Positions 1 to 29,209 of a stretch of 33,153 nt of DNA are shown here, piece after piece; within the stretch, counting starts at the first letter, position 1, and each line of letters starts with the position of its first letter. The notes under the pieces were generated by a model, which saw only the letters and a program-made list of their open reading frames with translations, was not told the DNA's origin and did no database searches. The position numbers were made by a program, and so were the translations under genes. The DNA comes from a virus (taxonomy: Duplodnaviria > Caudoviricetes). The stretch lies in the IMG/VR virus record IMGVR_UViG_3300011442_000019, positions 1 to 33,153 of that record; one strand, 5' to 3'.

Positions 1-140
1 ACCGCCGACCAAAAGACTCGCGGCAAACCTCAAAACTGGAATGCTGCTCGACCGGGCCGACACGAACCGCCTGCTCAAGAAACTCGAACGCATGGAATCT
101 GACGTGCCTGGCTGCGTCATCATGTGCGCGCAAATCCGCA

Positions 141-596
141 ATGTGCACCGGCGTGGCTGCTCCATCGAATTGTTCAGAGTCATCGGATTACGAAAGGTCT
201 CACTGCGATGTGCGCGGCTGCAAACAAAAAGACCGATGGCGCTGCTACGTCGCCGTCTTTCTTCCGGGAGAGGCGAAGCCGCTCTTCTCTCGATTCAAAG
301 ACTACGGATTCCGTAGTGTGTGCGACCTCCATCGCGAAACTCTCCGCCTGAAACCGCACCAAATAATCAAACTGGAGCATCTCCAATGGATCGCAAAAAG
401 CCGCACGAAGCCCAGTGAGCCAAGCTCGCAGAAGTTCAAGGTCGTGGTGGACTGGAGCATGGTGAGGGTGATGTGGAAACTCAACGGGTGGGAACAATCG
501 CAAGTAACGACCAAACGACAACAGAAAGAAAAACGACAACGCAAAGCCTTCCGAATGGAGGCGCAACTGTATGAACTCAAATCAAAACTTGGCTAA
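141..596 (+). CDS. Hypothetical cassette protein with Cys/His motifs (possible Zn-binding)
   Basis: 151-aa ORF that starts just inside attC0. Contains CDVRGC and CDLH motifs and overlaps the next ORF. Confidence 0.55.
   Translation: MCTGVAAPSNCSESSDYERSHCDVRGCKQKDRWRCYVAVFLPGEAKPLFSRFKDYGFRSVCDLHRETLRLKPHQIIKLEHLQWIAKSRTKPSEPSSQKFKVVVDWSMVRVMWKLNGWEQSQVTTKRQQKEKRQRKAFRMEAQLYELKSKLG
159..178 (-). mobile_element. Partial attC site (attC0), R''/L'' arm only
   Basis: Minus strand reads TCTGAAC-AATTC-GATGGAGC (R'', 5 nt, L''). Top 172-183 GTTCAGAGTCAT is the exact reverse complement of 1144-1155 ATGACTCTGAAC at the other end of the cassette. No matching second arm is visible. Confidence 0.6.
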
Positions 597-1131
597 AATA
601 TCTTCGGCTGCCGACTTGGCGCAACGCATCAAAAACGTCAGCAACGACCTGCTCGGAATCGCGCACGACTTGGTGCTCGCGCTCGACGCGAAGCCCGAAC
701 TGGCCGATGAACTCGAAGAAGTCGGCGTCAATCGTGAACTCATCCGGCGGCTCGAAAGGCTCGGGCGCGGCCAAATCCACCCGCAGCTTGTCTTCTCGAC
801 AACTCCGGGCGCGGAAAAACTGCTCACTGTCCCGCTCTCGGAACAGTCGCGCGCCTTGGAATCCGGCCTCGAAATAATGGACGATGACGAAACGACCTCG
901 CGGAATATCCCCATCAACGAACTCTCATCCGCGCAAGCGCAGCAGGCAATCAGCCGCGGTCGCATCCGCACGCTGGCCGAACAACGCACCTGGATACGGG
1001 ACAAGAAAAAGAAAGTCTCGCCGGTCTCGGCCAAGGAGGACTTCCGCATTTGCAGCGACCACGTAATCACGACGCGCCCCGGCAAATGGCCGAAGCGTCT
1101 CATTCTTCAATGGCTGATGGAGATGAGCTAA
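571..1131 (+). CDS. Hypothetical phage/cassette protein
   Basis: 186-aa ORF with protein-like helical composition that stops just before attC1. Confidence 0.75.
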   Translation: MNSNQNLAKISSAADLAQRIKNVSNDLLGIAHDLVLALDAKPELADELEEVGVNRELIRRLERLGRGQIHPQLVFSTTPGAEKLLTVPLSEQSRALESGLEIMDDDETTSRNIPINELSSAQAQQAISRGRIRTLAEQRTWIRDKKKKVSPVSAKEDFRICSDHVITTRPGKWPKRLILQWLMEMS

Positions 1132-1148
1132 CCGCGTGGGACTATGAC

Positions 1149-1247
1149 TCTGAACGCCAAACTGAGCGTATGACCACCGCGCCCGCGATGCCCGACTTTG
1201 CGAAAACCGTCAACGCGGTGGGCATTCGCTCCAGTGCTGGGTTGGAG
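1149..1247 (-). mobile_element. attC site 1
   Basis: Minus strand: CTCCAAC-CCAGC-ACTGGAGC-GAATGCCCACCGCG...CGCGGTGGTCATAC-GCTCAGT-TTGGC-GTTCAGA. An 8-nt L'' pairs with a 7-nt L', leaving an extrahelical base. Confidence 0.88.
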
Positions 1248-1364
1248 CGTCCTGTTCAAAACCTCAATAAAATCAAGGCTTCCGCCCTCCTAAAAATAAA
1301 TGTGATTTCGCTATTGACTACGGCAACCGCTTGCCGTAGTCTGTTTGCAGTTGAGGGCCAGTAA
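1170..1364 (+). CDS. Short ORF starting inside attC1 (may be non-functional)
   Basis: ATG at 1170 in the attC stem; 64 aa; runs across the promoter region. Confidence 0.3.
   Translation: MTTAPAMPDFAKTVNAVGIRSSAGLERPVQNLNKIKASALLKINVISLLTTATACRSLFAVEGQ
1314..1342 (+). promoter_or_regulatory. Sigma70-type promoter with overlapping palindromic operator
   Basis: TTGACT-17 bp-TAGTCT with an AT-rich upstream tract. A perfect 11-bp inverted repeat GACTACGGCAA-ccgc-TTGCCGTAGTC spans 1316-1341. Confidence 0.75.
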
Positions 1365-1383
1365 CCCGAGACAAAAAACGCGA

Positions 1384-1491
1384 ATGAAAACACTGACAAA
1401 GAAAGAAGCGGCAAAGACGGCGCACATGCTCACGAACAAAACCTGGCGCATCTTCGAGGCGGCGATCACGGGCGACAACACCGGCCTATGA
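1384..1491 (+). CDS. 35-aa peptide MKTLTKKEAAKTAHMLTNKTWRIFEAAITGDNTGL
   Basis: Read by hand because it is below the ORF-track cutoff. It follows the promoter and an A-rich leader and has an ATGA overlap with the next ORF. Confidence 0.6.
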   Translation: MKTLTKKEAAKTAHMLTNKTWRIFEAAITGDNTGL

Positions 1492-1694
1492 AAAATCGTG
1501 CCGCAGTCGCACTCGGAAAACTAGGTGGTCAAGCCGGGACTGGCGCTGCCAAAGCCCGCACGAGCAGCTTTACGAGCGCCAGCGCGAAGGCCGCGCTCGC
1601 CGCTCGATGGGCAAAAGCCAAACGCAAACCAAGGGCGTCCGTCCGGCGATCCAACGCGGAAGTGAGCCACGGCTCTGCCGCCAAAAACCTATGA
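1488..1694 (+). CDS. Small basic putative DNA-binding protein (KNxAAVALGxLGG...AARW type)
   Basis: Recognisable small basic motif. The C-terminus reads into attC2 and overlaps the next ATG. Confidence 0.7.
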   Translation: MKNRAAVALGKLGGQAGTGAAKARTSSFTSASAKAALAARWAKAKRKPRASVRRSNAEVSHGSAAKNL

Positions 1695-1747
1695 AAACAC
1701 AAAAACCGTCAACGGCAGAGCCGTTGGACTACACTGACTGGTTGGGC
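1649..1747 (-). mobile_element. attC site 2
   Basis: Minus strand: GCCCAAC-CAGTC-AGTGTAGT-CCAACGGCTCTGCCG...CGGCAGAGCCGTG-GCTCACT-TCCGC-GTTGGAT. L'' is slightly degenerate. Confidence 0.85.
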
Positions 1748-2077
1748 CGCGCCTCGAAAGTTGAGGTGTCGCTACTGCTGTTTCTGGAGACATGCGCCGT
1801 CGATAAGGGCGGCAAAATAGTGACGACTCACATGAACGCGGAAGACATGGAGATCGCGAAACGCTGGAATGAGGAGGGCTTCGTGAGCTTCGGACGAATC
1901 GCCTCCGAAGACATCAGCCAATACGGATCGCACTGGTGCAATCTAAGTGAGACGGCGTGGAAGTCGGTGGGGGCGGCTCGTCGAGCAAGAGCAATGCGTC
2001 AATGGGGAGCACGCAAATACACCACGACCGAAGAGAAACGCGAGCGGCCCAACGTGAAGTCCAGCGATGAGCGATAA
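1691..2077 (+). CDS. Hypothetical cassette protein (128 aa)
   Basis: ATG at 1691 in the attC2 loop after an A-rich tract; the stop codon lies inside attC3. Confidence 0.8.
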   Translation: MKTQKPSTAEPLDYTDWLGRASKVEVSLLLFLETCAVDKGGKIVTTHMNAEDMEIAKRWNEEGFVSFGRIASEDISQYGSHWCNLSETAWKSVGAARRARAMRQWGARKYTTTEEKRERPNVKSSDER

Positions 2078-2176
2078 ATGTCCAAACCACGTCCGCAGGC
2101 GGCGAGGGTGTCCGATCTGCGAGAGAATATCGGCGGCACTGGCGGAAAGCTCATTCGCTGCGACGCCTTGTTCACC
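2047..2176 (-). mobile_element. attC site 3
   Basis: Minus strand: GGTGAAC-AAGGC-GTCGCAGC-GAATGAGC...GCTCATC-GCTGGAC-TTCAC-GTTGGGC, with two extrahelical bases. Confidence 0.9.
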
Positions 2177-2333
2177 TGTAGCGGGCATCCTCTACGATGC
2201 AACCGCAGGCAACAACGACTGCAACGGCAAAATCGCTGTCACTACGGCGAACGACCCGATGCCAGACCTCAAGGAAGTGCTGCACGCCGACGACGTGGCA
2301 GCGGCAACAATCCCGGACTCGTCGAAAGCCTGA
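2067..2333 (+). CDS. Hypothetical cassette protein (88 aa, N-terminal CxxH/CxxC)
   Basis: ATG in the attC3 stem. An alternative frame (2078-2374) is also open, so the coding frame is uncertain. Confidence 0.5.
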   Translation: MSDKCPNHVRRRRGCPICERISAALAESSFAATPCSPVAGILYDATAGNNDCNGKIAVTTANDPMPDLKEVLHADDVAAATIPDSSKA

Positions 2334-2361
2334 CGATGTTCGGGCGCGGAGTGACTAAGCG

Positions 2362-2460
2362 CCCGAACGATTAGCTCTGCCATGAATGCCGCGCCCACAA
2401 CGCCCGCTCTCGCCAATGACGCCCAACGCGGCAGTCATTGGCAGCAGCGCATGGTTGGGC
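2362..2460 (-). mobile_element. attC site 4
   Basis: Minus strand: GCCCAAC-CATGC-GCTGCTGC-CAATGACTGCCGCG...CGCGGCATTCATG-GCAGAGC-TAATC-GTTCGGG. Confidence 0.9.
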
Positions 2461-3041
2461 GTCATTCGTGGTGCGTCCTGCATCATGCCGACTGTCTGGA
2501 CGTGCTGCCAATCACGGCTGACGCCGTAGTGACCGACCCGCCGTATGGCATCTACGCCTGCGGCGGAAAATGGGGAAAGAAGGCGCAACTCTACTGGGAC
2601 AAAGCCGCCGCTGAAATCTCCCCGCTGCTCGAACTCGCGCCGCTCGTGGCAATCTGGGGAGGCAACTACTTCGTGCTGCCGCCGTCGCGGGGCTGGCTCT
2701 CGTGGTGGAAACCTGACCGCGTGCCGAGTGCGGCTGACATGGAACTGTGCTGGACGAATCAGGACATGAACGCCCGCTCAATCAAATGGAGCATCGCGGC
2801 GACCAACGCCGAGCGCGTAGGACACCCGACGCAAAAGCCGGTGCGCGTGATGGCGTGGACGCTGGAACAACTCGGCGTCCCGAAAGGCGCAACCGTCCTC
2901 GACCCATACATGGGCAGCGGAAGCACCGCGATAGCCTGCATTCGCCTCGGCATGAATTTCATCGGCATCGAACGGGATGCCGCACACTACAAAACCGCGT
3001 GCGACCGTATCGCGCACGAACTAGATGGCGCGTTGCTATGA
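2382..3041 (+). CDS. Beta-class N6-adenine/N4-cytosine DNA methyltransferase (cassette)
   Basis: TDPPY catalytic motif, HPTQKP, and VLDPYMGSGST...FIGIE SAM-binding motifs. Confidence 0.93.
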   Translation: MNAAPTTPALANDAQRGSHWQQRMVGRHSWCVLHHADCLDVLPITADAVVTDPPYGIYACGGKWGKKAQLYWDKAAAEISPLLELAPLVAIWGGNYFVLPPSRGWLSWWKPDRVPSAADMELCWTNQDMNARSIKWSIAATNAERVGHPTQKPVRVMAWTLEQLGVPKGATVLDPYMGSGSTAIACIRLGMNFIGIERDAAHYKTACDRIAHELDGALL

Positions 3042-3043
3042 CG

Positions 3044-3073
3044 CCCGAACCATCTATAGGCAACTCCTGTTCG
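3044..3073 (-). mobile_element. Putative attI site
   Basis: GTT core (minus strand GTTCGGG) at the cassette boundary with no attC hairpin, directly upstream of intI. A similar sequence occurs at 29174-29203. Confidence 0.7.
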
Positions 3074-3076
3074 TAT

Positions 3077-4033
3077 ATGAAAACCCAAGAAGCCATCGAA
3101 AAACTCCGAGCCGTAATCCGGCGGAGACACTTCGCAGTTTCCACCGAGCAGAGCTACTGCGCCTGGCTTCCACGGTTCGCGCGCTTTGTCTCGGAACGCT
3201 GCCCCAGCGGATCGCCCGCGGAAAAAATGGAGGCCTTCTTGACGCAATTGGCCCGGCAAGACGTTTCCGCCTCCACGCAAAACCAAGCCTTCAATGCGCT
3301 GATTTTCTTCTACCGTGAAGTGCTGAAAGTGGAAGTCGGCAAAGTGGATTCGCTGCGCGCCAAAAAACCGGTCCATCTCCGCTATGCCCCGGAGCTCGGC
3401 GAGGTCCGGCAGTTGCTCGCCGCGCTCGAAGATGTCGGCGGCTACCCCACGCGGTTGATCGTGAAGTTGATTTATGGATGCGGCCTGCGCGTGACTGAGC
3501 CTTTGAACCTGCGCCTGAAAGATGTTTTGCTTTCGGAATCGAAGCTGATTCTGCGCGGCGCCAAAGGCGGCAAAGACCGCTTCGTTTCCATTCCCTGTTC
3601 GCTCACCGGCGAACTGGCCGCGCAAATGGAGTTCGGCAAATCCCTCGGCGAGCGTGACCGCCTCGCGCGGTTGCCAGTGGCGCTGCCGGGATTGCTCGCC
3701 AGCAAATATCCCCACTGGCAATTCTCGCCGAAATGGGCATGGCTGTTTCCGGCGCACCAACCCTGCGCGCACCCGCGCACGGGCGCGAGGGTCCGCTGGC
3801 GCTGTCACGAAGCCAACGTCCAGCGCTGCGTCCGCGCCGCCGCCCGGCCGATGGGCCTGGACATCACCCCGTATCATCTGAGGCACGCTTACGCGACGCA
3901 CTGCCTGAATGCCGGCCAGAATCCGCGCGCGATTCAACAGGCGATGGGGCATTCGCAACTGGAAACGACGATGGGCTATTTGCACGCCGAGGCGCTGGCC
4001 GTGCGCAGCCCGCTGGAATTTTCCACCGCCTGA
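3077..4033 (+). CDS. intI: Integron integrase (tyrosine recombinase), 318 aa
   Basis: N-terminal IRRRHFAVSTEQSY...VSASTQNQAFNALIFFY; catalytic motifs YGCGLR, KGGKDR, HLRH and GHSQLETTMGY; IntI-specific insertion WAWLFPA...HPRTGARVRWRCHE. ATG at 3077. Confidence 0.95.
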   Translation: MKTQEAIEKLRAVIRRRHFAVSTEQSYCAWLPRFARFVSERCPSGSPAEKMEAFLTQLARQDVSASTQNQAFNALIFFYREVLKVEVGKVDSLRAKKPVHLRYAPELGEVRQLLAALEDVGGYPTRLIVKLIYGCGLRVTEPLNLRLKDVLLSESKLILRGAKGGKDRFVSIPCSLTGELAAQMEFGKSLGERDRLARLPVALPGLLASKYPHWQFSPKWAWLFPAHQPCAHPRTGARVRWRCHEANVQRCVRAAARPMGLDITPYHLRHAYATHCLNAGQNPRAIQQAMGHSQLETTMGYLHAEALAVRSPLEFSTA

Positions 4034-4272
4034 TGCCCGCCCCGCAGCAAACCGAACTGCCCGCGCTGCCCTTCGAGAAATTGCTCTCGGCCAAGGAAGT
4101 CGCCGCCGAGTTTGGCGTGGATGAAGATTCCGTGTTGCGCTGGTGGCATGAGGGCCTGCCCACCGGCCGGGAAATTCCGCGCCGCTACATGCGCCGCCGC
4201 GGCTTCGCCGGCTACCTGTTTTTTCCCCAGGTCATCGAGTTCATCCGCGCCGAACAAAATTCCCTCGACTGA
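4033..4272 (+). CDS. MerR/excisionase-like helix-turn-helix protein (79 aa)
   Basis: LLSAKEVAAEFGVDEDSVLRWWHEG; TGATG overlap with the intI stop codon. Confidence 0.8.
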   Translation: MPAPQQTELPALPFEKLLSAKEVAAEFGVDEDSVLRWWHEGLPTGREIPRRYMRRRGFAGYLFFPQVIEFIRAEQNSLD

Positions 4273-4591
4273 CCGCTCCCTCACGGTCGCGGCTCCGTGG
4301 CATCCGCACCGTCCGTGTAACCCGTCTCTCCCGTCGTCTCCGCCTCAACCTTAGACGCTTTTGGGTTCCCCGTGGAACAATGCGCGTGCAATGAATGACA
4401 CGCGAATAATTTCCGGAGGGCCGGTGAGAAGTAACCTCCAACCGTTTCCTCCGGTGGGTCGTTCATTGCGCTCGCCGTCACCCTCCGCCTTTTCCCCTCG
4501 CCCCGGATCAGTGGGGTATTGGGTCAATGGATATTCCACCAATCCAACCCCTCCGGCCTCCGACCTCCGACCTCCGGTCTTGAGCAGTTGC

Positions 4592-5026
4592 ATGTCCTCC
4601 CGTCTTCCCTGCTTCGCGTCTTTGCTCCTTTGCGCCTTTGCGTTGAATTTCTCCGGCTGTTCGACCACGCCCGCCACGACCCAGCACCGCATCGAATCCA
4701 GTTGCAAGGTTGCTGCGTATCTCGGCACCGCCACCGCCCTGGCCGAGCATCCCGAATGGCGGGCCGGCTTCGTCACCGCCCGCGATCAACTCCACGTCCT
4801 CGAAACCGCCGACACCGTTGACTTCGTGACCCTGCTCGCCATCGTGCAGCAACTCCCGATCAAGGAATTGAAATCCCCCAACGCGCGCCTGGCCATCACC
4901 ACCGCCACGATCCTCTTGCAGGACTACGCGGGCGAACTCGCGCTCGACAATTTGCAGCAACTCAAACCCATCGCCGGGGCGCTCCGGGCCGGCATTGATC
5001 TCGGCCTGCTGCAAACGCCGCCCTGA
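4592..5026 (+). CDS. Putative lipoprotein (in the lysis-module position)
   Basis: Hydrophobic leader followed by an FSG-C lipobox-like motif; the start codon is uncertain. Confidence 0.65.
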   Translation: MSSRLPCFASLLLCAFALNFSGCSTTPATTQHRIESSCKVAAYLGTATALAEHPEWRAGFVTARDQLHVLETADTVDFVTLLAIVQQLPIKELKSPNARLAITTATILLQDYAGELALDNLQQLKPIAGALRAGIDLGLLQTPP

Positions 5027-5061
5027 CGCCTGACCCAAACTAAAACACCCAAAGGAACCTT

Positions 5062-5412
5062 ATGTTAACTCGCGGACCCATTATCGCCCCGACCGCCCGC
5101 CGCTGGTTTGACGCCGCCGGCCGCCCCAGTCCCGAACGGCTCGAAACCTCCACGGGCGTCGCCGAAGATTATAGCGACGTGGAAACCCTCATCACCGATC
5201 CAACGCAGGGACCCCTCGTCAAGCGCACGCCGGTCTTCGCGCCCGGCGAAATCGTAATCGTGCCCGTGCGCGTGCTGGGCCTGCCCGCCTTCGATGCGCC
5301 GGTGAACATTGACACCATCAAAGCCCCCGGCGCGGAGATGAGTTGCAAAGGCCCGATCACCGCGCTCGATGAAGGCAAACTGCCCGTGTTCTACCGCTCG
5401 GTGGCAGGTTGA
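5062..5412 (+). CDS. Hypothetical phage protein
   Basis: 116-aa ORF with an AAGGA/A-rich leader and phage-like codon usage. Confidence 0.7.
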   Translation: MLTRGPIIAPTARRWFDAAGRPSPERLETSTGVAEDYSDVETLITDPTQGPLVKRTPVFAPGEIVIVPVRVLGLPAFDAPVNIDTIKAPGAEMSCKGPITALDEGKLPVFYRSVAG

Positions 5413-5457
5413 GTCCGTCAGGGAGGGTAAAATCATTGGGCCGGGAACTGAAAAGCT

Positions 5458-5946
5458 ATGAACGACAAACCCACGACACGCAAGCCATCCACGCCGATCG
5501 CGAGACGGTCCGGATCATCCGCCAATTCATTGCCGGCTACGGCGGGCCGCGCAGCGCGGCGGAGCGTGATCGTCGCGCTCGCCATCGCCGTCGGCAGTTT
5601 ACTGCTCGGCAGCGCCCGCGCCCAGGCCGGCCAGCCGCCGCCGGAACCGCTCCTCAAGACCGCCTTTGAAGCCATCTGCCTTTCCGGGCACACGAACCAA
5701 CTCCGGCCCCTGACCGTGCGCGGCAACGGCGGACGCGCGATTCACGGCGGCATCGTCCGCGAAGTGACCCTCGGCTTCAAATGTCCCGATTGCCGCAAGA
5801 AATTTGAACAGGACGCGGAAGTGACCATTCCCAATTCCGCCATACGCCCCAAGGCGCGGATATTGAAGGCGGACAACCTGCCGCCCGCGCCGCCGCCGCC
5901 GCCGCTGCAATCCGCAATCCGCAATCCGCAATCCGCAATCCCGTGA
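5458..5946 (+). CDS. Hypothetical membrane or secreted protein with CxxC
   Basis: Hydrophobic segment and CPDC motif; the C-terminus is encoded by a CAATCCG tandem repeat. Confidence 0.55.
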   Translation: MNDKPTTRKPSTPIARRSGSSANSLPATAGRAARRSVIVALAIAVGSLLLGSARAQAGQPPPEPLLKTAFEAICLSGHTNQLRPLTVRGNGGRAIHGGIVREVTLGFKCPDCRKKFEQDAEVTIPNSAIRPKARILKADNLPPAPPPPPLQSAIRNPQSAIP

Positions 5947-6365: not shown

Positions 6366-6638
6366 ATGAACCCGGCCGACCGCGAACACCTGCGTTTGAG
6401 TTTGCTCCGTTTCCTCGCGGAGAACCCCACGCGTTGGGGTTTCAACGCCGCGCTGCTTTTACAGATGGCCCGCAACGAAGGCCAGCGCGCCGCCAACCGC
6501 GAAGACATCGTGGCCGAACTCGAATACCTCGCGGACAAAAAGCTGGTCGCGCCGGTGCAAAAACAAATCAGCCCGGAGAACCGCGCCTGGCGCATCACCG
6601 CCGAGGGCCGCGATCACCTGGCGCAAATCGCCGAATGA
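6366..6638 (+). CDS. Mu gp26-like winged-helix protein
   Basis: RLSLLRFL...ELEYLADKKLV...RITAEGRD pattern and synteny. Confidence 0.85.
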   Translation: MNPADREHLRLSLLRFLAENPTRWGFNAALLLQMARNEGQRAANREDIVAELEYLADKKLVAPVQKQISPENRAWRITAEGRDHLAQIAE

Positions 6639-6646
6639 AACCCATG

Positions 6647-7342: not shown

Positions 7343-8809
7343 ATGCGCGCCGCCAAAATAAATTTCCGCCCGTTCCAACTCCCGATCTTCACCGATCGCG
7401 AGAGCGGCATCGTGTTGCTCCACTGGTCGCGCCAGATCGGTAAGAGCTACACCCTCGCCGCCTGGGCCGTGGACCGGTTGCTCACCCGTCCGGGCCGCCT
7501 CGTCACCGTCCTCTCCAATTCGCGCGACAATGGCGCGGAGTTCGCCGCCAAGTGCGGCGAAGTCGCCCGCGAACTCGGCCTCGTCTGCGAACAGATGGAC
7601 GGATCTCCCGACGCCCAATATGAAAACATGCGCTACGAAGTGCGCGTTACCGTCAAGGGAAAGACCGGGCGCATCAAGGTCCTCGCCGCCAATGCGCGCA
7701 CGGCTCGCGGCTTTTCTGGCGACCTTATTCTTGACGAGTTTGCCTTCCATGAAGACTCGAACGCGATTTGGGAAGCCGCGGAACCCATCCTCTCCAGCAA
7801 CCCCGATTTTCTGTGTCGCATCGCCAGCACCGGCAACGGCAAGCACAACATGTTCTATCGCATGTCCGCCGGAGCCGGACCCGATGATGGCCGGTTCTTC
7901 CAGTCACTCGCCGGTTTCAAAGTCTGCCGCGTCACGCGCACCGCGGCCTGGCTTCAGGGCGTCAAAGTCTATGACCCCAACACCCGGCAGCCGATCACAC
8001 CCGCCGAAGCTCGGACGAAAGCGTTAGACAAGCGCGCCTACGATCAGAACTACGAGTGCGCGTTTGCCGATGAGAACATGTGCCTCCTCACGCACGAACT
8101 CATTCAATCGGCGGAGCGCCCCGGCATCCCCATTGACGACCAGCATTGGTCCCTTCGGTCCCTCGCCGTCCTTTCGAGCGCCCAAGGCGAACTTTATTTC
8201 GGCCTCGATGTTGGCCGCAACCGCGACCTCAGCTTCCTGCCGGTCCTGGAAAAGCTCGGGCAGACCAAACGCATCATCGCGGCGCTGCGGATGCAGGGGA
8301 TGCGCCTGCCCGCGCAACAGACCCAACTCGATCTCGTTTGCGGCCTCCCGAAATTCCGCTGCGGTTGCGTGGACATGACCGGCCTCGGCCTCGGCCTCTG
8401 CGAATACGCGCAGGAACGCTGGGGCGACTACAAAGTCCGCGGCGTCAACTTCGGCACCAGCGAACCCACCAGCGACCGCATCCGCCAGGAAGGCCGCAAG
8501 GCCCAGACCGCGCGCGTCACGGAAATCATGGCCACGGATTTACTGGCCGCCTTCGAGGAACGCAGCATCGAGTTGCACATCGAACTCGATGCCGACGCCC
8601 GGGATGATTTGCGGAAGCCCGAGAAGATCACCAGCCCCGGCGGCCGGGTGAGCATCGCCGCCGTGCGCGACGAAGCCGGCCACGCCGATCACTTCTGGGG
8701 ACTGGCCCTCGCGGTGCGCGCGGCGGGTAATTCCCCTGGCCCCTTCGCCTGGAAATCCATCTCCACTTCCCGCGGCGCGGGCATCCGCACGAAAGGCGTG
8801 CCGCTGTGA
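7343..8809 (+). CDS. Terminase large subunit (Mu gp28-like)
   Basis: Walker A SRQIGKS, Walker B LILDE, STGNG, and nuclease motifs GLDVG, DMTGLG and HADHFW. ATG at 7343. Confidence 0.95.
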   Translation: MRAAKINFRPFQLPIFTDRESGIVLLHWSRQIGKSYTLAAWAVDRLLTRPGRLVTVLSNSRDNGAEFAAKCGEVARELGLVCEQMDGSPDAQYENMRYEVRVTVKGKTGRIKVLAANARTARGFSGDLILDEFAFHEDSNAIWEAAEPILSSNPDFLCRIASTGNGKHNMFYRMSAGAGPDDGRFFQSLAGFKVCRVTRTAAWLQGVKVYDPNTRQPITPAEARTKALDKRAYDQNYECAFADENMCLLTHELIQSAERPGIPIDDQHWSLRSLAVLSSAQGELYFGLDVGRNRDLSFLPVLEKLGQTKRIIAALRMQGMRLPAQQTQLDLVCGLPKFRCGCVDMTGLGLGLCEYAQERWGDYKVRGVNFGTSEPTSDRIRQEGRKAQTARVTEIMATDLLAAFEERSIELHIELDADARDDLRKPEKITSPGGRVSIAAVRDEAGHADHFWGLALAVRAAGNSPGPFAWKSISTSRGAGIRTKGVPL

Positions 8810-9153
8810 ACGCTAGAAGCCAGAGGTCAGAAGTCAGAAGTCAGAGGGCTGAAATCCGCCCTCCGGCCTCCGACCTCCGACCTCAGCCCTTTGCCGCCAC
8901 AGCGCCCGCGGCGACTCCTATGTGCCGGAGTGGCGGAAATCGCCCCCCGACGCGCCCTAGCCCCCTGCAAAACCCTGCAACCCCGCGAATTTTGCCTCCG
9001 CACCCAGGACGGCCTCGCTCCCGGAAGCCGTTTTTCCACCTTGGAGGTTTCCCGTGACTGAAACCCTTCCCAAGGCAGAGGTCAGAAGTCAGAGGTCAGA
9101 GGTCAGAAATCGGACCTCCGCCCTCCGCCTTCTGGCCTCCGTCCTTCTGGCCA

Positions 9154-10752
9154 TTGCCTTTTTTTTTGGAGGGTCCGCTGAATACTGAAGCCTCCATCAT
9201 TGACCCCGCCCGGATCGAGCGCGCCATCCAGCAGCGCTACTCGCCGTTCCCCGAACTGACGATGGAGCGGCTCTCCGCCCAGCTCAACCAGTTCCGCATC
9301 GGCGAACTGCGCGCCGCCGCGCGCACCTGGGAAATCATGCTGGAGCGCGATGGCGATCTGGCCGTGCCGGCGGACAAGCTCTTTGCCGACATCGCCCGCC
9401 TCCCCTGGGAAATCGAGAAGTCCGAGGAGTCCGCCGAGGCCGAGGCCCACTTCGCGGCCCTCACCTATTTCTACACGCATCTGAGCGCGACGAGCATCCT
9501 CGATGGCGACGAAACCGGCGGCCTGAATCTGCTGCTGCGCCAGATGATGACCGCGCACGCCATGCGCTATTCGGTTCACGAAATGATTTTGCAGATCAGC
9601 AGCGCCGGAAAAAAGGAAGTCACCGCGCAATTTCTCCACGCGCCGGTCTGGTTCTTTGAAGCGCGCAAGGGCCGGCTGGGATTTCTCAAACAGGAGTTCG
9701 CGGTCTATGGCGAGCCGCTCGCCCGCGGCGAATGGCTGCCCGCCCTCGGGCGCGGCATGATGCGCCAGTGCAGCGTGGCTTATCTCTGCAAATGGTCGCC
9801 GCTCACCTACTGGGCGCTTTTCTGTTACCGCTTCGGCGTCCCCGGCATTCACGGCCTGACCGACGCACAGGAAGGCAGTGACGAGTGGAACAAATTCACC
9901 GCCGCGCTCTCCGCCTTTGCGAATGACTGGGTGACCGCTACGAACCGCACGGCGGAAATCAAACTCATCGAAGCCGCCAAGGGCGGGACCGGCACCCTGC
10001 CCTTCCAGGAACTCGTCGAGCGCAGCGACCGGCTTTACGCCCGCGCCTTTCGCGGCGGCGATCTCAGCACCCAATCGCGCGGCGGCAGCGCCGGCGGTGG
10101 CGGCGAAGTGGCCGGCGCGAACCCGCAGGAATCCGAGAAGGAAATCGTGCTGCAGGACGGCGGCCAGTGGGCGACCGACGTGCTCAACTCGCGCGTCGAT
10201 GAACCGATCATTGAATACCTTTTCAACGCGCGCCCCAAGGCGTGGATTTGCATCCGCCCGCCTAAGCGCAGCGATGTGCGTTCCGAAATCGAGGCCACTG
10301 GCGTCGCGATTCGGGCCGGCGTCATCACTCCGAGCGAGGCCGATGAAATTCACATGCGCGACCGGTTGAGTCTGCCGCCGATGTCCAAAGACGTGATCCG
10401 CGAGTGGAAGAAACAAGGCGGTGCGCGTTTACCCATCACGCTCCAAGCGGAAGGCGCGCCGGCCGCTCCCAACAATTTCAACCGCCCGGCGCTCGCGAAC
10501 TCCGCCAACCTGCAAGACCAATTCGCCGCCGCCCTGGCGGACAAAACGGATCCTGTCGGCGCGTTGATAAACCGCATCGTCGAAATCAAAGACGACGAGC
10601 AAATGCTGTCGGCGCTCCAACAATTCCTCGCGCGCGCGGACGTGCTCAGCGGGCTGCTCGCCTCGGACGTGACCAAGTTGCAACGCGCCCTCGAACAAAT
10701 CACCGCCCCCGCCCTCGCCGCCGGGCTGGCGGGAAAGGCCACCGCCGCATGA
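9154..10752 (+). CDS. Portal protein (Mu gp29/DUF935-like)
   Basis: WALFCYRFGVP motif, size, and position after the terminase. The start is non-ATG and uncertain. Confidence 0.88.
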   Translation: MPFFLEGPLNTEASIIDPARIERAIQQRYSPFPELTMERLSAQLNQFRIGELRAAARTWEIMLERDGDLAVPADKLFADIARLPWEIEKSEESAEAEAHFAALTYFYTHLSATSILDGDETGGLNLLLRQMMTAHAMRYSVHEMILQISSAGKKEVTAQFLHAPVWFFEARKGRLGFLKQEFAVYGEPLARGEWLPALGRGMMRQCSVAYLCKWSPLTYWALFCYRFGVPGIHGLTDAQEGSDEWNKFTAALSAFANDWVTATNRTAEIKLIEAAKGGTGTLPFQELVERSDRLYARAFRGGDLSTQSRGGSAGGGGEVAGANPQESEKEIVLQDGGQWATDVLNSRVDEPIIEYLFNARPKAWICIRPPKRSDVRSEIEATGVAIRAGVITPSEADEIHMRDRLSLPPMSKDVIREWKKQGGARLPITLQAEGAPAAPNNFNRPALANSANLQDQFAAALADKTDPVGALINRIVEIKDDEQMLSALQQFLARADVLSGLLASDVTKLQRALEQITAPALAAGLAGKATAA

Positions 10753-12029
10753 AATTTTCCCATCCGCCATCTGCCCTCTGCCCTCTGCCATCGGTGCTCG
10801 CCCTCGCCAACTCCGCCGAGGAACTCGGCGACGTGCTCGCCCTGGAAAACGAACTCGCCCTCGACAACGACGGCTGGGCCTTGCTCGCCCCGTTCGGTGA
10901 GCACCGCAAGACGCGCACCATCCAGCGCGACGGCCGCGTCGTGCAGGAAACGTTTGTCCAGGTGTTCGACGAAGCGGCCGTGGACGCCGTGCTCGCCAAC
11001 GAAAACGGCGGCGTGTTCACCCGGCTCAAGCGCGCCTTCATCAAGCGCCCGATCTACAACGGCCATCCCGACATCAAACTTTACGCGCCGGAAACCGTAA
11101 CGCTGGCCAACGAGCGATTGATTCCCCTCGGGTTGAATCAGGCGTGCCGCAAAACCGCGCGCGGGTTGGAATTCCAACCGCTGCTGGTACCGGACGGCAA
11201 GAAAGCCGTGGAAGAGGACGGCTGCAAATATCCGAGCGGCCTTTTCCTGCTGAACAAAACCGGCGGGGTCCGCGCGGACGGCGCGATTGAAGTGCGCCCC
11301 TTCAAGCTCGCCAGCATCGGCCTCACCCCGCACCCCAACATTTCCGGCGTGGACTCCCTGGCGAACGCCAGAGCGAACCAACCCGCCGCGAGCGACAAAA
11401 CCAAAACCACAGACGACACCATGAAACAACTCCTCATCGGGTGGCTCGCGGCCCAGGGCATCGCCCTGGCAAACGATTCCACCGATCAATCCGTGTTCGA
11501 CGCCTTCAATAAAGAATGGCTCGCGCGCACCACGACCAGCACCGCGCTGGCCAACGACAAAACCAACTTGACGCAAACCGTCAACACGCTCACTGCCGAT
11601 CGGGACAAGGAAAAGACCCGCGCGGACCAGGCCGCCACCGCGCTGGCCAATGAACAAACCGCTTTCAAGGCCGAACGCCAGGCGCGCGTCGAAGCCTGCG
11701 TTGATCTCACGATCACCCAGGGCAAACTCGACGTGGCCGGCCGCGCCGCGAAAGTCACGGAACTGCTCGCCCTGGCCAACGACAAGTTGCCCGAGGCCCT
11801 CACCGTGCTGGAGAAACTCCCGGCCAAATTCAAGATCGCGAGCGCCCTCGGCAGCGACCGCAAGTCCGCCGCGACCGCTTCCGGCAGCGCGCAGCAGAAG
11901 ATTCTCACCCTGGCCAACGACGACGAAAAATACAAAGCCCTCCCGATGGACAAGGCGATGGCCGCCATCGAACGCGATTACCCCGCGCTCTTCGAGGAAC
12001 TCCGCCAACCCGCCACGACCGCGAAGTAA
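10749..12029 (+). CDS. Prohead protease with C-terminal scaffold (Mu gpI/gpZ-like)
   Basis: LAPFGE, PIYNGHPD, YPSGLF and LASIGLTPHPNI motifs followed by a helical tail; ATGA overlap with the portal gene. Confidence 0.88.
   Translation: MKFSHPPSALCPLPSVLALANSAEELGDVLALENELALDNDGWALLAPFGEHRKTRTIQRDGRVVQETFVQVFDEAAVDAVLANENGGVFTRLKRAFIKRPIYNGHPDIKLYAPETVTLANERLIPLGLNQACRKTARGLEFQPLLVPDGKKAVEEDGCKYPSGLFLLNKTGGVRADGAIEVRPFKLASIGLTPHPNISGVDSLANARANQPAASDKTKTTDDTMKQLLIGWLAAQGIALANDSTDQSVFDAFNKEWLARTTTSTALANDKTNLTQTVNTLTADRDKEKTRADQAATALANEQTAFKAERQARVEACVDLTITQGKLDVAGRAAKVTELLALANDKLPEALTVLEKLPAKFKIASALGSDRKSAATASGSAQQKILTLANDDEKYKALPMDKAMAAIERDYPALFEELRQPATTAK
11421..12029 (+). CDS. Probable internally initiated scaffolding protein
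   Basis: In-frame ATG after an A/C-rich leader like those at other gene starts here; analogous to Mu gpZ. Confidence 0.65.
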   Translation: MKQLLIGWLAAQGIALANDSTDQSVFDAFNKEWLARTTTSTALANDKTNLTQTVNTLTADRDKEKTRADQAATALANEQTAFKAERQARVEACVDLTITQGKLDVAGRAAKVTELLALANDKLPEALTVLEKLPAKFKIASALGSDRKSAATASGSAQQKILTLANDDEKYKALPMDKAMAAIERDYPALFEELRQPATTAK

Positions 12030-12072
12030 ACCAACTCCCCAAAAACCGACGCTCAACTCAAACCAAAATCCC

Positions 12073-12378
12073 ATGATGAAAAACAAACTCCGACTCCACC
12101 TCGCGATCTTCGCGGCCACGCTGTGCGCCGCGTTCCATCGCGCTACGCCCGGCGCGCTCGCCCTGGGCAACACCAAAACCGACCCGGCCGAGCCGCCCGT
12201 TGATCTCGCGGCGGAGAACGCTGCCCTCCGCAAGCAACTCGCCGCGCGCGATGGCGAAGCCCAACAGATCGCCGAACTCGTCAACCTTGGCCTCACCCAT
12301 CCCCAGGCCGTCGCCAACCTGAAACACAAGGCGGACTTCCGCGCCCGCGCCGCCACGGTCAAAGCCGCGAAGAAATAA
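12073..12378 (+). CDS. Small head-associated protein (101 aa)
   Basis: ATG at 12073 after an A/C-rich leader; N-terminus resembles that of the next gene. Confidence 0.75.
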   Translation: MMKNKLRLHLAIFAATLCAAFHRATPGALALGNTKTDPAEPPVDLAAENAALRKQLAARDGEAQQIAELVNLGLTHPQAVANLKHKADFRARAATVKAAKK

Positions 12379-12427
12379 CCGGCGAATCCAAAAATCCATT
12401 CATCCAAAAATCCAACGATCCAAAAAT

Positions 12428-12919
12428 ATGAACCGTTTCAAACTCACGCTCGCGCTCCTCTGCGCCGCCGCGGCCGCCCTGCTGCACCGCGTCAAACAAA
12501 ACGGCGTGGCCCTCGCCAACGCCATCCTCACGCATCCGCAATGCGGCGATACCGCCCTCGCGGATGAAGCCATCGGCCGCTTCAAACTCCTTAAGGCCGG
12601 CACGGACATTTATCACAAAGCGCTGTGCGACAAGAACGACATCCCGGAAGGCTTCACGCGCGATGCGTCCGCCGCCGCCGCCGAAGACCGCTTCGCGTTC
12701 GATTACCTCGGGCTGGCGCGCAAGGGCACGGAAGGCACCGCCAGCGGGACCTGCACCGCCGGCAACCTCTGCTGCCCCGGCGACAACGGCACCATCCGCG
12801 ACATCACCGCCGTCTCCAGCGAGACGGTTTACGTCTGCGGTAAACTCCTGACCACCGCGGCCACGACCGAGCAAGTCGTGTTCATCCCCTATCCCCCGGT
12901 CAAGTTGATCATCGCATAG
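12428..12919 (+). CDS. Putative capsid decoration/cement protein
   Basis: Size, beta-rich G/A/T pattern, and position between scaffold and capsid. Confidence 0.7.
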   Translation: MNRFKLTLALLCAAAAALLHRVKQNGVALANAILTHPQCGDTALADEAIGRFKLLKAGTDIYHKALCDKNDIPEGFTRDASAAAAEDRFAFDYLGLARKGTEGTASGTCTAGNLCCPGDNGTIRDITAVSSETVYVCGKLLTTAATTEQVVFIPYPPVKLIIA

Positions 12920-12959
12920 CCGGCCAACCATCCATCAATCCATTACTCCATCAATCCAA

Positions 12960-13982
12960 ATGAAAAACCTTGCCTCCCTCGCCACCGTGGCCCTCGCGAA
13001 TTCCATTTGCGCCCGGCTGCACATCCAGCCGCATGACAATTACGGCTCGCTTCCCCACGGCTCCGTCTGCCTCGCCAACGACAGCTTGTTTTCGCAGGCC
13101 ACGCTGCAAGTCGAACAAACCACCTACGGCATCGGCTATGCGGATCCCAACCGCAACAAGCTCGTGGACCTGCTCAATTCGCTCGCGCCCACGCGCTCGG
13201 GGCCGCGCAACGCCCGCATCACCGTCTATGACGAAACGGAACCGTTCGAGACCGTGGATTACAAGACGGTCAAACGCGCCGAACTCGGCGACTTCCGAGA
13301 AGTCAAACAGCGCACGTCCACCCGCGTTACGCGCGCCGTCCTCAATCGCGGCCTCACCTGCGTGCTCGATACCGACCAACTCATTGACAAACCCAACTGG
13401 CGCCAGATGCACACCGAATGGCTCATTGACCTCCTCTCGCGCGCTTCGATCCTGGAAGTCCTCGCCCTCTACGCCGCGATCGCCGCGACGGACACCTACA
13501 CCTGGAACGCGAACGCGAACCCGGACCTGGACCTGAAGAACCTCAACGTCTCCGTGCTCGCGCCGGCCACCGGCTTCAAGGCCAACCGCGCGGTCTTCGG
13601 CGAAGAGGCCACCCTCAAGCGCCAGATCGCTTACGAGCCGCAGAACAACGCCGGTGCTTATGCCGCCGCGCCGATCATGACCGATGAAGGCATCGCCGCG
13701 CGCATCGGCGTGGACCGCGTGCGCACGAACGTCGAGCGCTACAACACGGCCGGCGTGAAGAACACCTTCCTCGGCTCGAAAGTCCTGCTCTTCACCTCGC
13801 AGGATCAGGAGTCGCCGGAAGACGCCAGCAACATCGTCCGCCACACCGCCAACACCGGCGCGGGCGGGGCCTATGCGGTGTACGTCGAGGAGCGTTTGAA
13901 AAAGACGCTGATCACCGTGGAAAACTACGAACTGTTCGCCACCCAACACACCAGCGGCGTCGCCCTCATCACCATCAACTGA
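12960..13982 (+). CDS. Major capsid protein
   Basis: 340 aa, strong codon bias, expected position, followed by a hairpin. Confidence 0.8.
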   Translation: MKNLASLATVALANSICARLHIQPHDNYGSLPHGSVCLANDSLFSQATLQVEQTTYGIGYADPNRNKLVDLLNSLAPTRSGPRNARITVYDETEPFETVDYKTVKRAELGDFREVKQRTSTRVTRAVLNRGLTCVLDTDQLIDKPNWRQMHTEWLIDLLSRASILEVLALYAAIAATDTYTWNANANPDLDLKNLNVSVLAPATGFKANRAVFGEEATLKRQIAYEPQNNAGAYAAAPIMTDEGIAARIGVDRVRTNVERYNTAGVKNTFLGSKVLLFTSQDQESPEDASNIVRHTANTGAGGAYAVYVEERLKKTLITVENYELFATQHTSGVALITIN

Positions 13983-13988
13983 TCGCCT

Positions 13989-14019
13989 GGGAGCGCCGGC
14001 ATCCCTGCCGGCGCTTCCC
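13989..14019 (+). terminator. GC-rich hairpin or REP-like palindrome after the capsid gene
   Basis: GGGAGCGCCGGCA-TCCC-TGCCGGCGCTTCCC; no U-tract follows. Confidence 0.55.
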
Positions 14020-14058
14020 GCTCACTCAATCAAAAATCCACCCATCCAAAAATCCAAA

Positions 14059-14562
14059 ATGAAATTCCCGAAACTCAAATCCGCCCTCTGCCTTCTGGCC
14101 TCCGCCAGCTGCCTGGCCGCGCTCCCCGCATCGGCGCAACTGCTCGGCGGCAACCAGGTCAACATCTATGCGCCGGTCAGCACCGGCTTCAGCAATTGTC
14201 CCACCGTGATGATCGGCATCGCGGCCGGGGCCAGCCAGACCAACCTCACCGCCAGCTACACGAACGCCGTGCGTCTGCGGCCCGGCCGCGATCTGGGCCT
14301 GGCCGCGCAACTCACCGGCGGCTCGAACACCGTCGGCGGCCTGCTGTTCAACTTCGGCCTGGTCTATAACCGCACCAACACCTGCACGATCACCAACTTC
14401 ACCTGGACGGTGAACGTCAACGGCACCACGGCCGTCCGCAATTGGACGAACATCCCCAACAGCATCGTCGGCAACGCCGACGGCGTGTTCCTCCATAGCG
14501 TGTTGGACACCGGCACCAACTCGATCACGGGCATCAAACTGTTCGCCCAGCAGCAACCTTGA
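14059..14562 (+). CDS. Signal-peptide-bearing Asn/Thr-rich protein
   Basis: Basic-hydrophobic leader ending in ASA, followed by a beta-rich mature region. Confidence 0.75.
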   Translation: MKFPKLKSALCLLASASCLAALPASAQLLGGNQVNIYAPVSTGFSNCPTVMIGIAAGASQTNLTASYTNAVRLRPGRDLGLAAQLTGGSNTVGGLLFNFGLVYNRTNTCTITNFTWTVNVNGTTAVRNWTNIPNSIVGNADGVFLHSVLDTGTNSITGIKLFAQQQP

Positions 14563-14647
14563 GGCACCGCGCCGCCGTCGGTGCGTGAGGTCGCGTCGCG
14601 CGCCGCCGGCCTTTTAATAATCCGCAATCCGCAATCCGCAATCTGCA

Positions 14648-15100
14648 ATGGCCAATTGGATCCCCATCACGCTCGCCACGCTGAAAGAAGCGAAAGTCGC
14701 CGCGCTCATTGACGCCTGCGATTCCGCGGCGTTGGGCGAGGGCCAGGCGAACCGCAGCGCCGGCGTCATCCAGGGCGTCGTGGATGAAATCCGCAACGCC
14801 GTCGCCAGTTGCAAAACCAACCGCGTGGACAGCGACCTCACGAAAATCCCCAAAGGATTGCGCGACCTCGCGGTGGACCTCATCACCGCTCGCCTCAAGA
14901 AAGCGATCGAGCAACCGCTCACCGATGACGAGCGCACCGACGTGGCCGAGCGCCGCCGCCAACTCCGCGACATCGCCGCATGTGATTTGGTGGTGGACCA
15001 GCCGGATGATCCGGTTGAACCGGAAGTCGAGACCAACCTCGGGGTCGAACTGATCCGCCAACCCGGCGACAACCCGCTGAGCGGCCTCGGGATTACCTGA
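14648..15100 (+). CDS. Mu gp36-like (DUF1320) head-tail adaptor
   Basis: IP..LRDLAVDL...RL...LRDIA pattern and synteny. Confidence 0.75.
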   Translation: MANWIPITLATLKEAKVAALIDACDSAALGEGQANRSAGVIQGVVDEIRNAVASCKTNRVDSDLTKIPKGLRDLAVDLITARLKKAIEQPLTDDERTDVAERRRQLRDIAACDLVVDQPDDPVEPEVETNLGVELIRQPGDNPLSGLGIT

Positions 15101-27428: not shown

Positions 27429-27922
27429 CAAAACCATTTTTCTCTGCCCCCGGCCACGTCGCCCGCCTCCAGTCCCTCATCCCCCCCTGGCTCGGCACGC
27501 CCTTCCTGGAGAGCTGCGGCGGCCGCGCGAAACCCGGCGTCTCGGCGGACTGCTGCTGGATTGCCGTGCCCCTGCAACAATGCGGCGCGATCGGTGCCGT
27601 GCCGTGGCCGTCGCGCTACGTGAGCCGCGGCGGCGGCCCGGCGATGCTGGAAAAACTCCTGGAAATCCTCGACGGCACCGAACGCCTCATGTGCATCTGG
27701 TCGCGCCCAACCCACGGCCCTCTGACCTCTGACCTCCGACCTCTGGCCTTCCTCCCCGGCGACGTGCTCCTGTACACCACCGGCACCCGTCTCCACCACC
27801 TGGGCCTATTGATCAACGCCACCCAATTCGTGCATTCCTGGTCTGGCAAAATCCAGTTAGCCAGCGTCGCCGATCAGCGCGAGCGATTCCTGTTCGCCGT
27901 TTACCGCGCGTACGCGCCATGA
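27344..27922 (+). CDS. NlpC/P60-family tail-associated peptidase
   Basis: WLGTPF...ADC, PGDVLLY, HHLGL and FVHSW motifs. Confidence 0.85.
   Translation: MGAASPASSAPKILPLPGGEGRGEGGRLTKPFFSAPGHVARLQSLIPPWLGTPFLESCGGRAKPGVSADCCWIAVPLQQCGAIGAVPWPSRYVSRGGGPAMLEKLLEILDGTERLMCIWSRPTHGPLTSDLRPLAFLPGDVLLYTTGTRLHHLGLLINATQFVHSWSGKIQLASVADQRERFLFAVYRAYAP
27347..27427. repeat. REP-like palindromic insertion
   Basis: CCCTCTCCCC-GGGGGAGAGGG-CCGGGGTGAGGG; a related copy lies at about 21585-21622. Confidence 0.7.
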
Positions 27923-28299
27923 AAACGAAAACAGTAATCGAAGTGCAGGAATGGGATGCGCTCGTCGAGAAGACATACGGGCGCACTTACAAACTCCAGC
28001 AGCAGGATGGGTGTCGGAGTCGCGGAACGCTCGAAATCTCCGTGCCGGCACAGGCTGACGACTACGAGCGCGATGCCGTGCCGAAAGAAGTGAACAACGA
28101 GGCGATGGGAGTGAGCTTCAAATCGTGGCTGGCTCGTGACCCGAAGCAAAAACTCTCCGACCCGGAAGCACAGGAGGACTACTGCCTCGAACTCTGGTGG
28201 AAGCGTAACTTCTACCCCGACGTGCAAATGGTCGCAAACGACCTCCACGCCAAAGGACTTCTGTCGGCTGGAGAGCACACGATACTCATAGACTGGTAA
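27919..28299 (+). CDS. Hypothetical accessory protein (cassette-like)
   Basis: 126 aa with codon usage unlike the flanking tail genes; its TAA stop lies in the attC5 core GGTAAC. Confidence 0.8.
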   Translation: MKTKTVIEVQEWDALVEKTYGRTYKLQQQDGCRSRGTLEISVPAQADDYERDAVPKEVNNEAMGVSFKSWLARDPKQKLSDPEAQEDYCLELWWKRNFYPDVQMVANDLHAKGLLSAGEHTILIDW

Positions 28300-28421
28300 C
28301 GAAAAGCTCTGAGGCCGCCGTCAAAATGCCAACAACTCTACAACCGCCAGCGATGACCGCCGAAGCAGGTGACTCTCAAATCACCAGCGATAAGGCGGTT
28401 CTCAGCAGCGTCTTGTTACCC
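28294..28421 (-). mobile_element. attC site 5 (tail-module array)
   Basis: Minus strand: GGGTAAC-AAGAC-GCTGCTGA-GAACCGCC...GGCGGCC-TCAGAGC-TTTTC-GTTACCA. Confidence 0.85.
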
Positions 28422-29179
28422 AGCCCGTATTACAAAGACACTCTCATCGAAATCCATCATGGCGACTGCCGCGAAAAGCTGCGCGGAAAACTGGTGGACT
28501 GCATCTTCACGTCCCCGCCCTACAACGCCGCGAAAGAATACGCCGACCACGATGACGACATGACGGATGATGACTACTGGACGCTCATCAGTGACGTGGC
28601 GGAACTCTGCTACGAAATCGCCCGGCCCGGTGCGTATGCAATCTGGAACGTGCCGATGTGGATGGGCAACCGCCCAAAGAAATACGTCCCGGACCTGGTG
28701 CGCGTCCACGTCGGCGGTCAGGGCTGGGACTTCTGCGATGAAATCGTGTGGGTCAAAGGCTCGCTCGAAGGTGCGAACGCTGGCGGTAGCGCGTGGGGAA
28801 ACTACCCGACCAGTCCATCAATCCGAAACGCATCCGAGCCGCTGCTGATCTTCCGCAAGCCCGGCGGCAGTCCCCGGCCAATCTCTGACGTGACGTGGAA
28901 AGAATGGGCGCAACTCACCGTCGGCGTGTGGCCGATCCAATGCGAGATGAATCAGAAAGACCATCCCGCGAAATTCCCAATCGAACTGGCAAGGCGCGTC
29001 CTCAAGCTCTACTCCGCGCCGGGTGAAACCGTGTGCGACCCATTCTTGGGAAGTGGGACAACCGCACTCGCAGCAAACAACTGAACCGGAGAGCCGTGGG
29101 TGCGGACATCTCCAAAGAATACTGTGAACTGGCCGCTAATAACTGCGCGCAAGAAATGGCGTGGGGCTTGGCTGGGTAA
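28326..29179 (+). pseudogene. Beta-class N4-C/N6-A DNA methyltransferase cassette, frameshifted near 29077
   Basis: TSPPY, HPAKFP and DPFLGSGTT motifs. The ORF stops at 29084, but LNRRAVGADISKEYCELA... continues in the -1 frame to TAA at 29179. Confidence 0.85.
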
Positions 29180-29203
29180 CGATGATTATACGACTACAGT
29201 TCG
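29174..29203 (-). mobile_element. Second attI-like site
   Basis: Cassette boundary without a hairpin; 17 of 26 nt identical, without gaps, to 3048-3073. Confidence 0.6.
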
Positions 29204-29209
29204 CTGAAC

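Follow-up and report, generated by a model that had tools for sequence, protein, structure and literature searches.

An integron with inverted cassette genes in the operon of a Mu-like phage

What could an integron do in the genome of a phage? Integrons are regarded as bacterial devices, lately as libraries of anti-phage genes, and Mu-like transposable phages have a variable early (semi-essential) region. The two meet in the viral contig IMGVR_UViG_3300011442_000019 (Caudoviricetes), whose 33,153 bases are the window, the single contig to which our analysis of this phage was confined. A first-pass annotation had placed a complete integron at 141-4033, built into a Mu-like phage genome. Here we describe the parts of this integron and their orientation, a layout that recurs across its family, and recombination scars at AA|C in its relatives. 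The integrase IntI, the attI site, four full attC sites and one half site are all borne out, and the cassette genes prove to be inverted relative to attC, the distinctive feature of the locus and one that the first-pass annotation had missed. We hold it probable that this is a complete integron in a Mu-like phage operon whose IntI excises and inserts cassettes, thereby changing the accessory gene set. The layout is common to dozens of unrelated phage contigs and likely lets phages swap small accessory genes, DNA methylase genes for instance, in their own operons.

Parts and orientation of the integron

The platform consists of the following features, together with the phage gene that adjoins it.

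159..183, minus strand: half attC (one arm and an R box; right arm 159-178) at the distal end of the array
1149..1247, minus strand: attC1, 25.2 bits, folding z -3.4
1649..1747, minus strand: attC2, 33.2 bits
2047..2176, minus strand: attC3, 33.1 bits
2362..2460, minus strand: attC4, 28.3 bits
3044..3071, minus strand: attI core (R box 3044-3050, L box 3056-3062) with a short palindrome beside it
3077..4033, plus strand: IntI, 318 aa, with Tyr266 at the box II His position, from NCBIfam and a structure-template alignment
4033..4272, plus strand: 79-aa helix-turn-helix (HTH)-like phage gene (weak match, E 1.8e-4), TGATG-coupled to intI

The attC sites were first sought with a scanner, which found four in 1-3100 against a shuffle mean of 0.13 and a maximum of 2 (300 shuffles). 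A covariance model trained on 26 bacterial attC (26 of 40 scanner candidates from GTDB loci) then recovered, over all 33 kb, exactly the four full sites that had been claimed and one more, at 28294-28421; all five lie on the minus strand and score 25-35 bits. Folding of single sites is a poor test for attC, as the z values of -0.6 and +0.6 for attC3 illustrate. The half site at 159-178 went unscored by the covariance model; its bases 172-183 are the exact reverse complement of 1144-1155 at the opposite end of the same cassette, with a chance probability of ~3e-5. The sites have the R''-L''-L'-R' geometry with an extrahelical base; the geometry given in the first-pass annotation reads on the minus strand while the genes lie on the plus strand, which had gone unremarked. 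The extra base of attC lies on the arm opposite the plus-strand AAC. By the account in PMC5027507, this position would mark the plus strand as the recombining bottom strand. As a separate observation, the attC4 loop holds a 13-base copy (2415-2427) complementary to the right end of attC4 (2454-2466), with which it could form an alternative hairpin.

The core site noted beside intI is confirmed by its match to a motif conserved upstream of viral intI, found in 31 of 43 viral loci versus 3 of 43 control windows; the window attI core (3044-3062) differs from the strict motif by two bases. A promoter scan of the window returned one site against 1.3 expected, with no Pc-like site at attI. Just ahead of the intI start lies the palindrome 3062-3071 (AAC, four bases, GTT), which also occurs upstream of intI in loci L059, L065, L069 and L019 and might act as a repressor box or as an accessory site for IntI.

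IntI has as its best NCBIfam match the integron integrase family TIGR02249 (246.8 bits; the cut-off of 265 is not reached) and is alignable end to end with VchIntIA (PDB 2a3v, E 1.5e-42), integron-specific insertion included. R138, K163, R269, H292 and Y301 are invariant across all 52 aligned IntIs. The description of this enzyme as intact thus stands for the insertion, the reading frame and five of six catalytic residues, but not for the box II His, which is Tyr266. The TGATG overlap at 4031-4035 is likewise real, but rather than leading straight into the late operon it couples intI to the one HTH-like gene, after which come ~350 non-coding bases. Such overlaps, of 1-4 bases, join intI to the following gene in 11 of 19 loci displayed, and a homologue of the HTH-like gene occurs in the Mu-like locus L138, which has no integron.

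Downstream, the head module (7343..15100, plus strand) encodes a terminase, Portal_Mu (E 3e-42), Mu-like_Pro (E 8.5e-9) and gp36 (a weak match, E 1e-4, below the cut-off), and is followed by siphovirus-type tail genes. These head genes mark the phage as Mu-like, in agreement with the first-pass annotation, and seven terminase relatives (L139, L140, L147, L149, L151, L160, L165) encode a Mu-type transposase and a transposition ATPase. Among the large candidate ORFs (open reading frames) of the terminase relatives, 7/8 match phrog_310, and in most of these relatives the transposition genes lie on the strand opposite the late genes. The contig ends in CA, preceded by two 10-base repeats 22 bases apart, and this segment (33062-33153) may be the right transposition end of the phage; sequence flanking the contig ends was sought in the runs for variable host flanks, and none was there. 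No Rfam family matched within the window. Because the nearest IntIs in GTDB genomes (50-58% identity) come mostly from Verrucomicrobiota, the host is presumably a member of that phylum.

Gene inversion across viral loci and translation through attC

The window platform is canonical, with minus-strand attC sites and a plus-strand intI, but every cassette gene lies on the plus strand. Cassette genes running in the attC direction and expressed from Pc, a regular integron feature, were not found there; the window integron, judged from its sequence, works like an integron yet departs from the canonical gene orientation. A search of viral contigs gave 56 loci with an IntI relative; counting the window, 41 loci carry one or more attC upstream of intI, and in 31 of them the number is at least two. 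Every one of these 31, three near-duplicate pairs included, carries mostly plus-strand genes (181 vs 5). By contrast, 10 of 80 GTDB loci have two or more sites and nine of these ten are canonical, with minus-strand genes (Fisher p 3e-8 vs viral); the exception, L058, has cassettes shared with phages. Locus L064, on a 714-kb contig, has at 127-9700 at least 19 similar attC and 15/15 canonical genes beside an IntI 57% identical to that of the window, which argues that inversion follows the phage context and not the enzyme family. Extra attC clusters away from intI were also seen at L040:579-1674 and L047:2342-2988, on the other strand and again opposite their genes. Our literature search, with subscription journals largely outside its coverage, turned up no description of inverted cassettes in a phage integron.

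How might inverted cassettes serve a phage? In our proposal the recombining bottom strand would be the plus strand, each cassette would span one AA|C to the next with its attC in front of its gene, and new cassettes would enter at attI directly upstream of intI. With the array upstream of intI in the operon, only inverted genes would be readable by the same transcript, and genes read from the phage-operon transcript would need no integron Pc promoter. The variable loop of attC likely gives a stop codon to the upstream gene and often a start codon to its own, and such attC-borne signals would keep translation coupled in any cassette order. Within the window, gene ends and starts inside an attC are directly visible at attC2, attC3, attC4 and attC5. 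Read in register with the plus-strand AAC, 133/137 distinct phage attC contain a stop; in the two remaining frames 83 and 79 do so. In a bacterial control of 46 attC the three frames hold stops in 30, 29 and 31. Genes that run into an attC do so in the AAC frame in 66/73 cases, and 65 of those 66 stop inside; of 45 genes ending just before an attC, 26 use a TAA overlapping AAC. An in-frame ATG inside attC is available to 67/118 downstream genes.

Comparison with known systems brings out what is shared and what is new. Like sedentary chromosomal integrons (VchIntIA, L064), the window has the IntI insertion, an intI divergent from attC, the extra base in L'', the G|TT crossover and complementary cassette ends; unlike theirs, in which genes follow attC and rely on Pc, the window genes are inverted and attC overlaps coding sequence. 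In the inverted-integrase integrons of Treponema and others (Cury et al. 2016, PMC4889954), intI and cassette genes likewise point the same way, but as described there intI is turned and the genes are canonical, whereas in the window it is the genes that are turned, intI and attC keeping the canonical arrangement. Class 1 integrons, through ORF-11 and short ORFs in attC (PMC8876359), likewise have att sites with start and stop signals that couple neighbours; in that account coupling is occasional and on the top strand, while in phage arrays it is near-general, on the opposite strand, and involves real genes ending or starting in attC. Qi et al. 2023 (PMC9892861) reported 3 complete integrons and 17 CALINs (clusters of attC lacking integron integrases) in 10,705 phage genomes, the complete ones being a Vibrio chromosomal piece, class 1 integrons in P1 and, in a cryptic prophage, an integron of Shewanella type. 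Their phage attC sites are proven IntI1 substrates, and IntI, attI, attC arrays and methyltransferase cargo are common to both studies; their cassettes are typical, and systematic inversion, a phage IntI group or operon coupling through attC do not feature in the portions of that report consulted.

The window shares with Mu-like phages the Mu-type portal, protease and gp36 and small accessory genes ahead of the late genes, but it packages its accessory genes as integron cassettes with their own recombinase. We lean slightly towards a broader view in which phages run an integron system of their own, with a widespread pool of inverted cassettes separated by orientation from host arrays, which employ the same enzyme family, and with attC as an interchangeable translational coupler; the arrays may also record cassette making. 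The same machinery would then be rewired for phage operons, giving phages a site-specific route for shuffling accessory genes and explaining part of early-region mosaicism. One prediction is that phage and host cassettes would be silent in each other's arrays.

Recombination scars at AA|C and the state of the window copy

Evidence for cassette movement comes from the cassette ends. In 58/86 cassettes the four bases after GTT pair fully with the R box of the adjacent site on the intI side, compared with 8/86 for the site's own R box and 0/61 for that of the previous site, and this complementarity played no part in site picking. The pattern places the crossover at AA|C. A cassette duplicated exactly between its AA|C crossovers, with one of the two copies at attI, occurs in L013 (254 bp; 7566-7819 and 9717-9970) and in L034 (305 bp; 8863-9167 and 9543-9847), and genes shared between the window and L058, L012 and L049, L045 and L058, and L007 and L011 stop at the crossover. 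These traces indicate past recombination in the relatives. In the window the cassette ends match over 9, 3, 7, 1, 0 and 8 contiguous bases (K0-K5); the K4 ends match once one extra base is allowed. Extended end complementarity (5-9 bases) was considered as a phage-specific trait and dropped, as it also occurs in L064.

A second kind of trace concerns the attC cores. Eleven pairs, 80-97% identical, head unrelated sequence, among them L012:8161-8249 and L029:9420-9508 (97%) and L004:7482-7616 and L005:8537-8671 (95%). In both of these pairs the switch from core to body falls at the R'' GTT, and the bodies checked keep their own complementary ends. Top-strand recombination or a cassette-making process could possibly account for identical cores on unrelated genes. 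Such re-use of cores offers a handle on cassette genesis, a long-open question. A search with a degenerate sequence pattern gave 12 matches, none with a scanner attC at the match.

Several points weigh against the proposed reading. The early region, with transposase region and promoter, is not on the contig. The ends of K3 and K4 are incompletely complementary (1 and 0 contiguous bases), and four runs, available as contigs only, yielded no cassette-excision joints, which does not itself establish their absence. The excess of stops in the AAC frame is shared by the canonical L064 array (15, 8 and 4 of 19; near-repeats) and is thus partly inherited; gene calls came from a simple model made for this analysis; and 57/86 cargo proteins have no family. 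A further point is Tyr266, which replaces a His that is present in the other 51/52 aligned IntIs. In a wider set of 121 stored proteins 118 have His, two have Tyr (the window IntI itself and its cluster mate) and one was unmatched by the pattern, so that Tyr266 is absent from the 51 other aligned loci and 118 other scored homologues. H277 is among the key residues of IntI1 (PMC9229058), and its substitutions abolish attI1 binding (Messier and Roy 2001, as cited in PMC3146285).

Whether Tyr266 impairs the window IntI is about an even call, and the chance that this copy remains active is equally balanced. The architecture may therefore be as described in a copy that is decaying, with IntI inactive and the array frozen or moved only by the IntI of a host or helper phage, an alternative that we take seriously and rate somewhat short of even. 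Tyr266 is unique, present in both database entries of the window IntI and confirmed in the source-run contig at the same position, and the half attC, the fused K3, the frameshifted second methyltransferase, a second attI without intI and the want of excision joints in the contig-only runs would all suit decay. Set against this are the other catalytic residues and the intact reading frame, and a dN (nonsynonymous divergence) of 0.14-0.16 against a dS (synonymous divergence, saturated) of 1.6-2.9 to the four nearest loci, which speaks for long purifying selection on the IntI lineage. Some tyrosine recombinases, moreover, are functional with Tyr at the box II His position. If the window IntI were weakened, the related IntI of the host could act in trans.

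Could the array instead be host DNA, either a fragment of a chromosomal integron taken up by the phage or sequence flanking a prophage, as Qi et al. 2023 described for Vibrio and Shewanella phages? The array does sit at the left end of the contig, and the contig shows no transposase; Verrucomicrobiota genomes with canonical arrays (L064) encode close IntIs; and none of 54 terminase relatives carries an integron. Host arrays are canonical, however, and the window genes are inverted; intI overlaps a phage gene with a homologue in a Mu-like relative; the cargo clusters are mostly viral; and the tail operon, on the same uninterrupted contig, contains a second attC-attI unit. Host capture is thus already largely refuted and we regard it as improbable. 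The proposal that IntI is the phage's own lysogeny integrase, acting with attI or attC against host sites, fares marginally worse. It could draw on the lack of a visible transposase on the contig and on the ability of IntI to insert cassettes at non-att sites (bioRxiv 10.1101/2022.09.11.507474), but the head genes are of Mu type, terminase relatives have a transposase, attI is occupied by phage-type cassettes, and relatives pair IntI with a Mu transposase in L017, L032 and L039 and with a separate tyrosine integrase in L001 and L045. Assembly chimerism or chance hairpins, conceivable for a metagenomic contig of depth ~7 whose source-run contigs break at 2125-2154 and 5914-5941, can practically be discounted, as one contig of uniform depth (2125-5941 at 7.1; neighbours 7.4 and 7.8) spans the methyltransferase gene, attI, intI and the 4.3-kb junction, and the sites withstand the shuffle and covariance tests and share their layout with 30 other viral loci. 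The window sequence is present in full in one freshwater-sediment run, possibly its source, and in part in a run of another study, where pieces of the array and late genes are near-identical throughout and of about equal depth.

Relatives, cargo and a second mini-array

The exchange of accessory genes in the semi-essential region, proposed from the window, gains support from Mu-like relatives in which the integron lies between transposition genes and terminase; the proposal had overlooked the inversion, and the integron is not fixed in the group. In L011, L017, L021, L032 and L039 the integron follows transposition genes (the ATPase in all five, the transposase in L017, L032 and L039), and terminase genes lie downstream in L011, L021, L032 and L039, the L017 contig ending before. 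A conserved intI position among related Mu-like phages was a suggested check, and it fails for the nearest late modules, with IntI in 0/54 terminase relatives (32 of them with at least 7 kb of upstream sequence, including 18 whose identity is 55% or higher); a covariance-model search of 27 terminase relatives found no attC. Every one of the nearest IntIs (74-82% identity) comes from a viral contig, and the phages concerned differ from this one in head or replication genes. On these grounds, and because none of the 54 terminase relatives carries it, the integron is best read as a mobile module passed between phages.

A FastTree tree of 116 IntIs, with 8 near-duplicate loci and loci lacking a full called gene (L064, L068 and L069 among them) set aside, puts the window in a 39-row clade of 27 inverted, 0 canonical and 12 undetermined rows. 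Eight inverted rows lie elsewhere, and a single origin of inverted arrays is accordingly not shown. Besides Mu-like phages, the carriers include some whose portals are of lambda, P22 or T7 type. The IntI family holds 805 protein clusters at E 1e-100 or better, most of them of unknown context. Nine records of GenBank phages have an IntI-like match, all below 38% identity, and the one inspected, Virus Rctr41k (L191, KX853513), does not have inverted cassettes; it appears to be of the inverted-integrase type. At 4680-10101 an IntI-like gene annotated xerD precedes ~six attC-like sites whose genes run in the same direction, and this virus is not among the phages tabulated in the portions of Qi et al. 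2023 (PMC9892861) consulted.

The cassettes of the main array carry the following.

141..596, plus strand: ORF of distal cassette K0 (start 141 or 210), no family
571..1131, plus strand: second K0 ORF, 186 aa, no family; look-alike clusters mostly viral
1316..1341, no strand: perfect 11-bp inverted repeat over promoter-like spacing in cassette K1, z -6.6
1384..1694, plus strand: K1, two small coupled ORFs (35 and 68 aa), the second reading through the attC2 AAC and stopping inside attC2
1691..2077, plus strand: K2, 128-aa gene, phrog_15089, predicted winged-helix-like fold, start in attC2 and stop in attC3
2067..2333, plus strand: K3, 88-aa ORF
2382..3041, plus strand: K4, N6/N4 DNA methyltransferase, starting inside attC4

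K0 is a two-gene distal cassette closed by the half site. The inverted repeat in K1 is likely an operator, although the promoter scan made no call at the promoter-like spacing (1314-1342), and K1, with this repeat ahead of its coupled ORFs, may be a self-regulated promoter cassette. The attC3 core is 97% identical to an L005 site that heads a different gene, and K3 probably arose by a deletion that fused the head of an L005-type cassette to the tail of an L007/L049-type one. The attC and gene of K4 have a 74% identical counterpart in phage locus L193, among other neighbours. A cargo scan of 86 of 135 array proteins, which left out the shorter ones and L056, found 12 DNA methyltransferases, 2 Mom-like proteins, 1 HNH protein and 1 PAPS reductase; one of the 86 is a transposition ATPase (L054) swept in by the chain rule. 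Because the cargo is rich in DNA-modifying genes, which plausibly counter host defence, the benefit to the phage is likely escape from host restriction.

The second mini-array lies in the tail operon.

27919..28299, plus strand: 126-aa gene, phrog_27943
28294..28421, minus strand: attC5, 34.5 bits
28326..29179, plus strand: second DNA methyltransferase cassette gene, apparent frameshift near 29082
29174..29209, minus strand: second attI-like site, no intI behind

A search with tail proteins for an empty version of this site found no relative. The first gene is 78% identical in nucleotides to a gene of the L058 array, similarity stopping at the AAC crossover in both, and the ends of cassette K5 are complementary over 8 bases beyond the core triplet. 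At the end of the mini-array (27919-29209), a small ORF begins where intI would.

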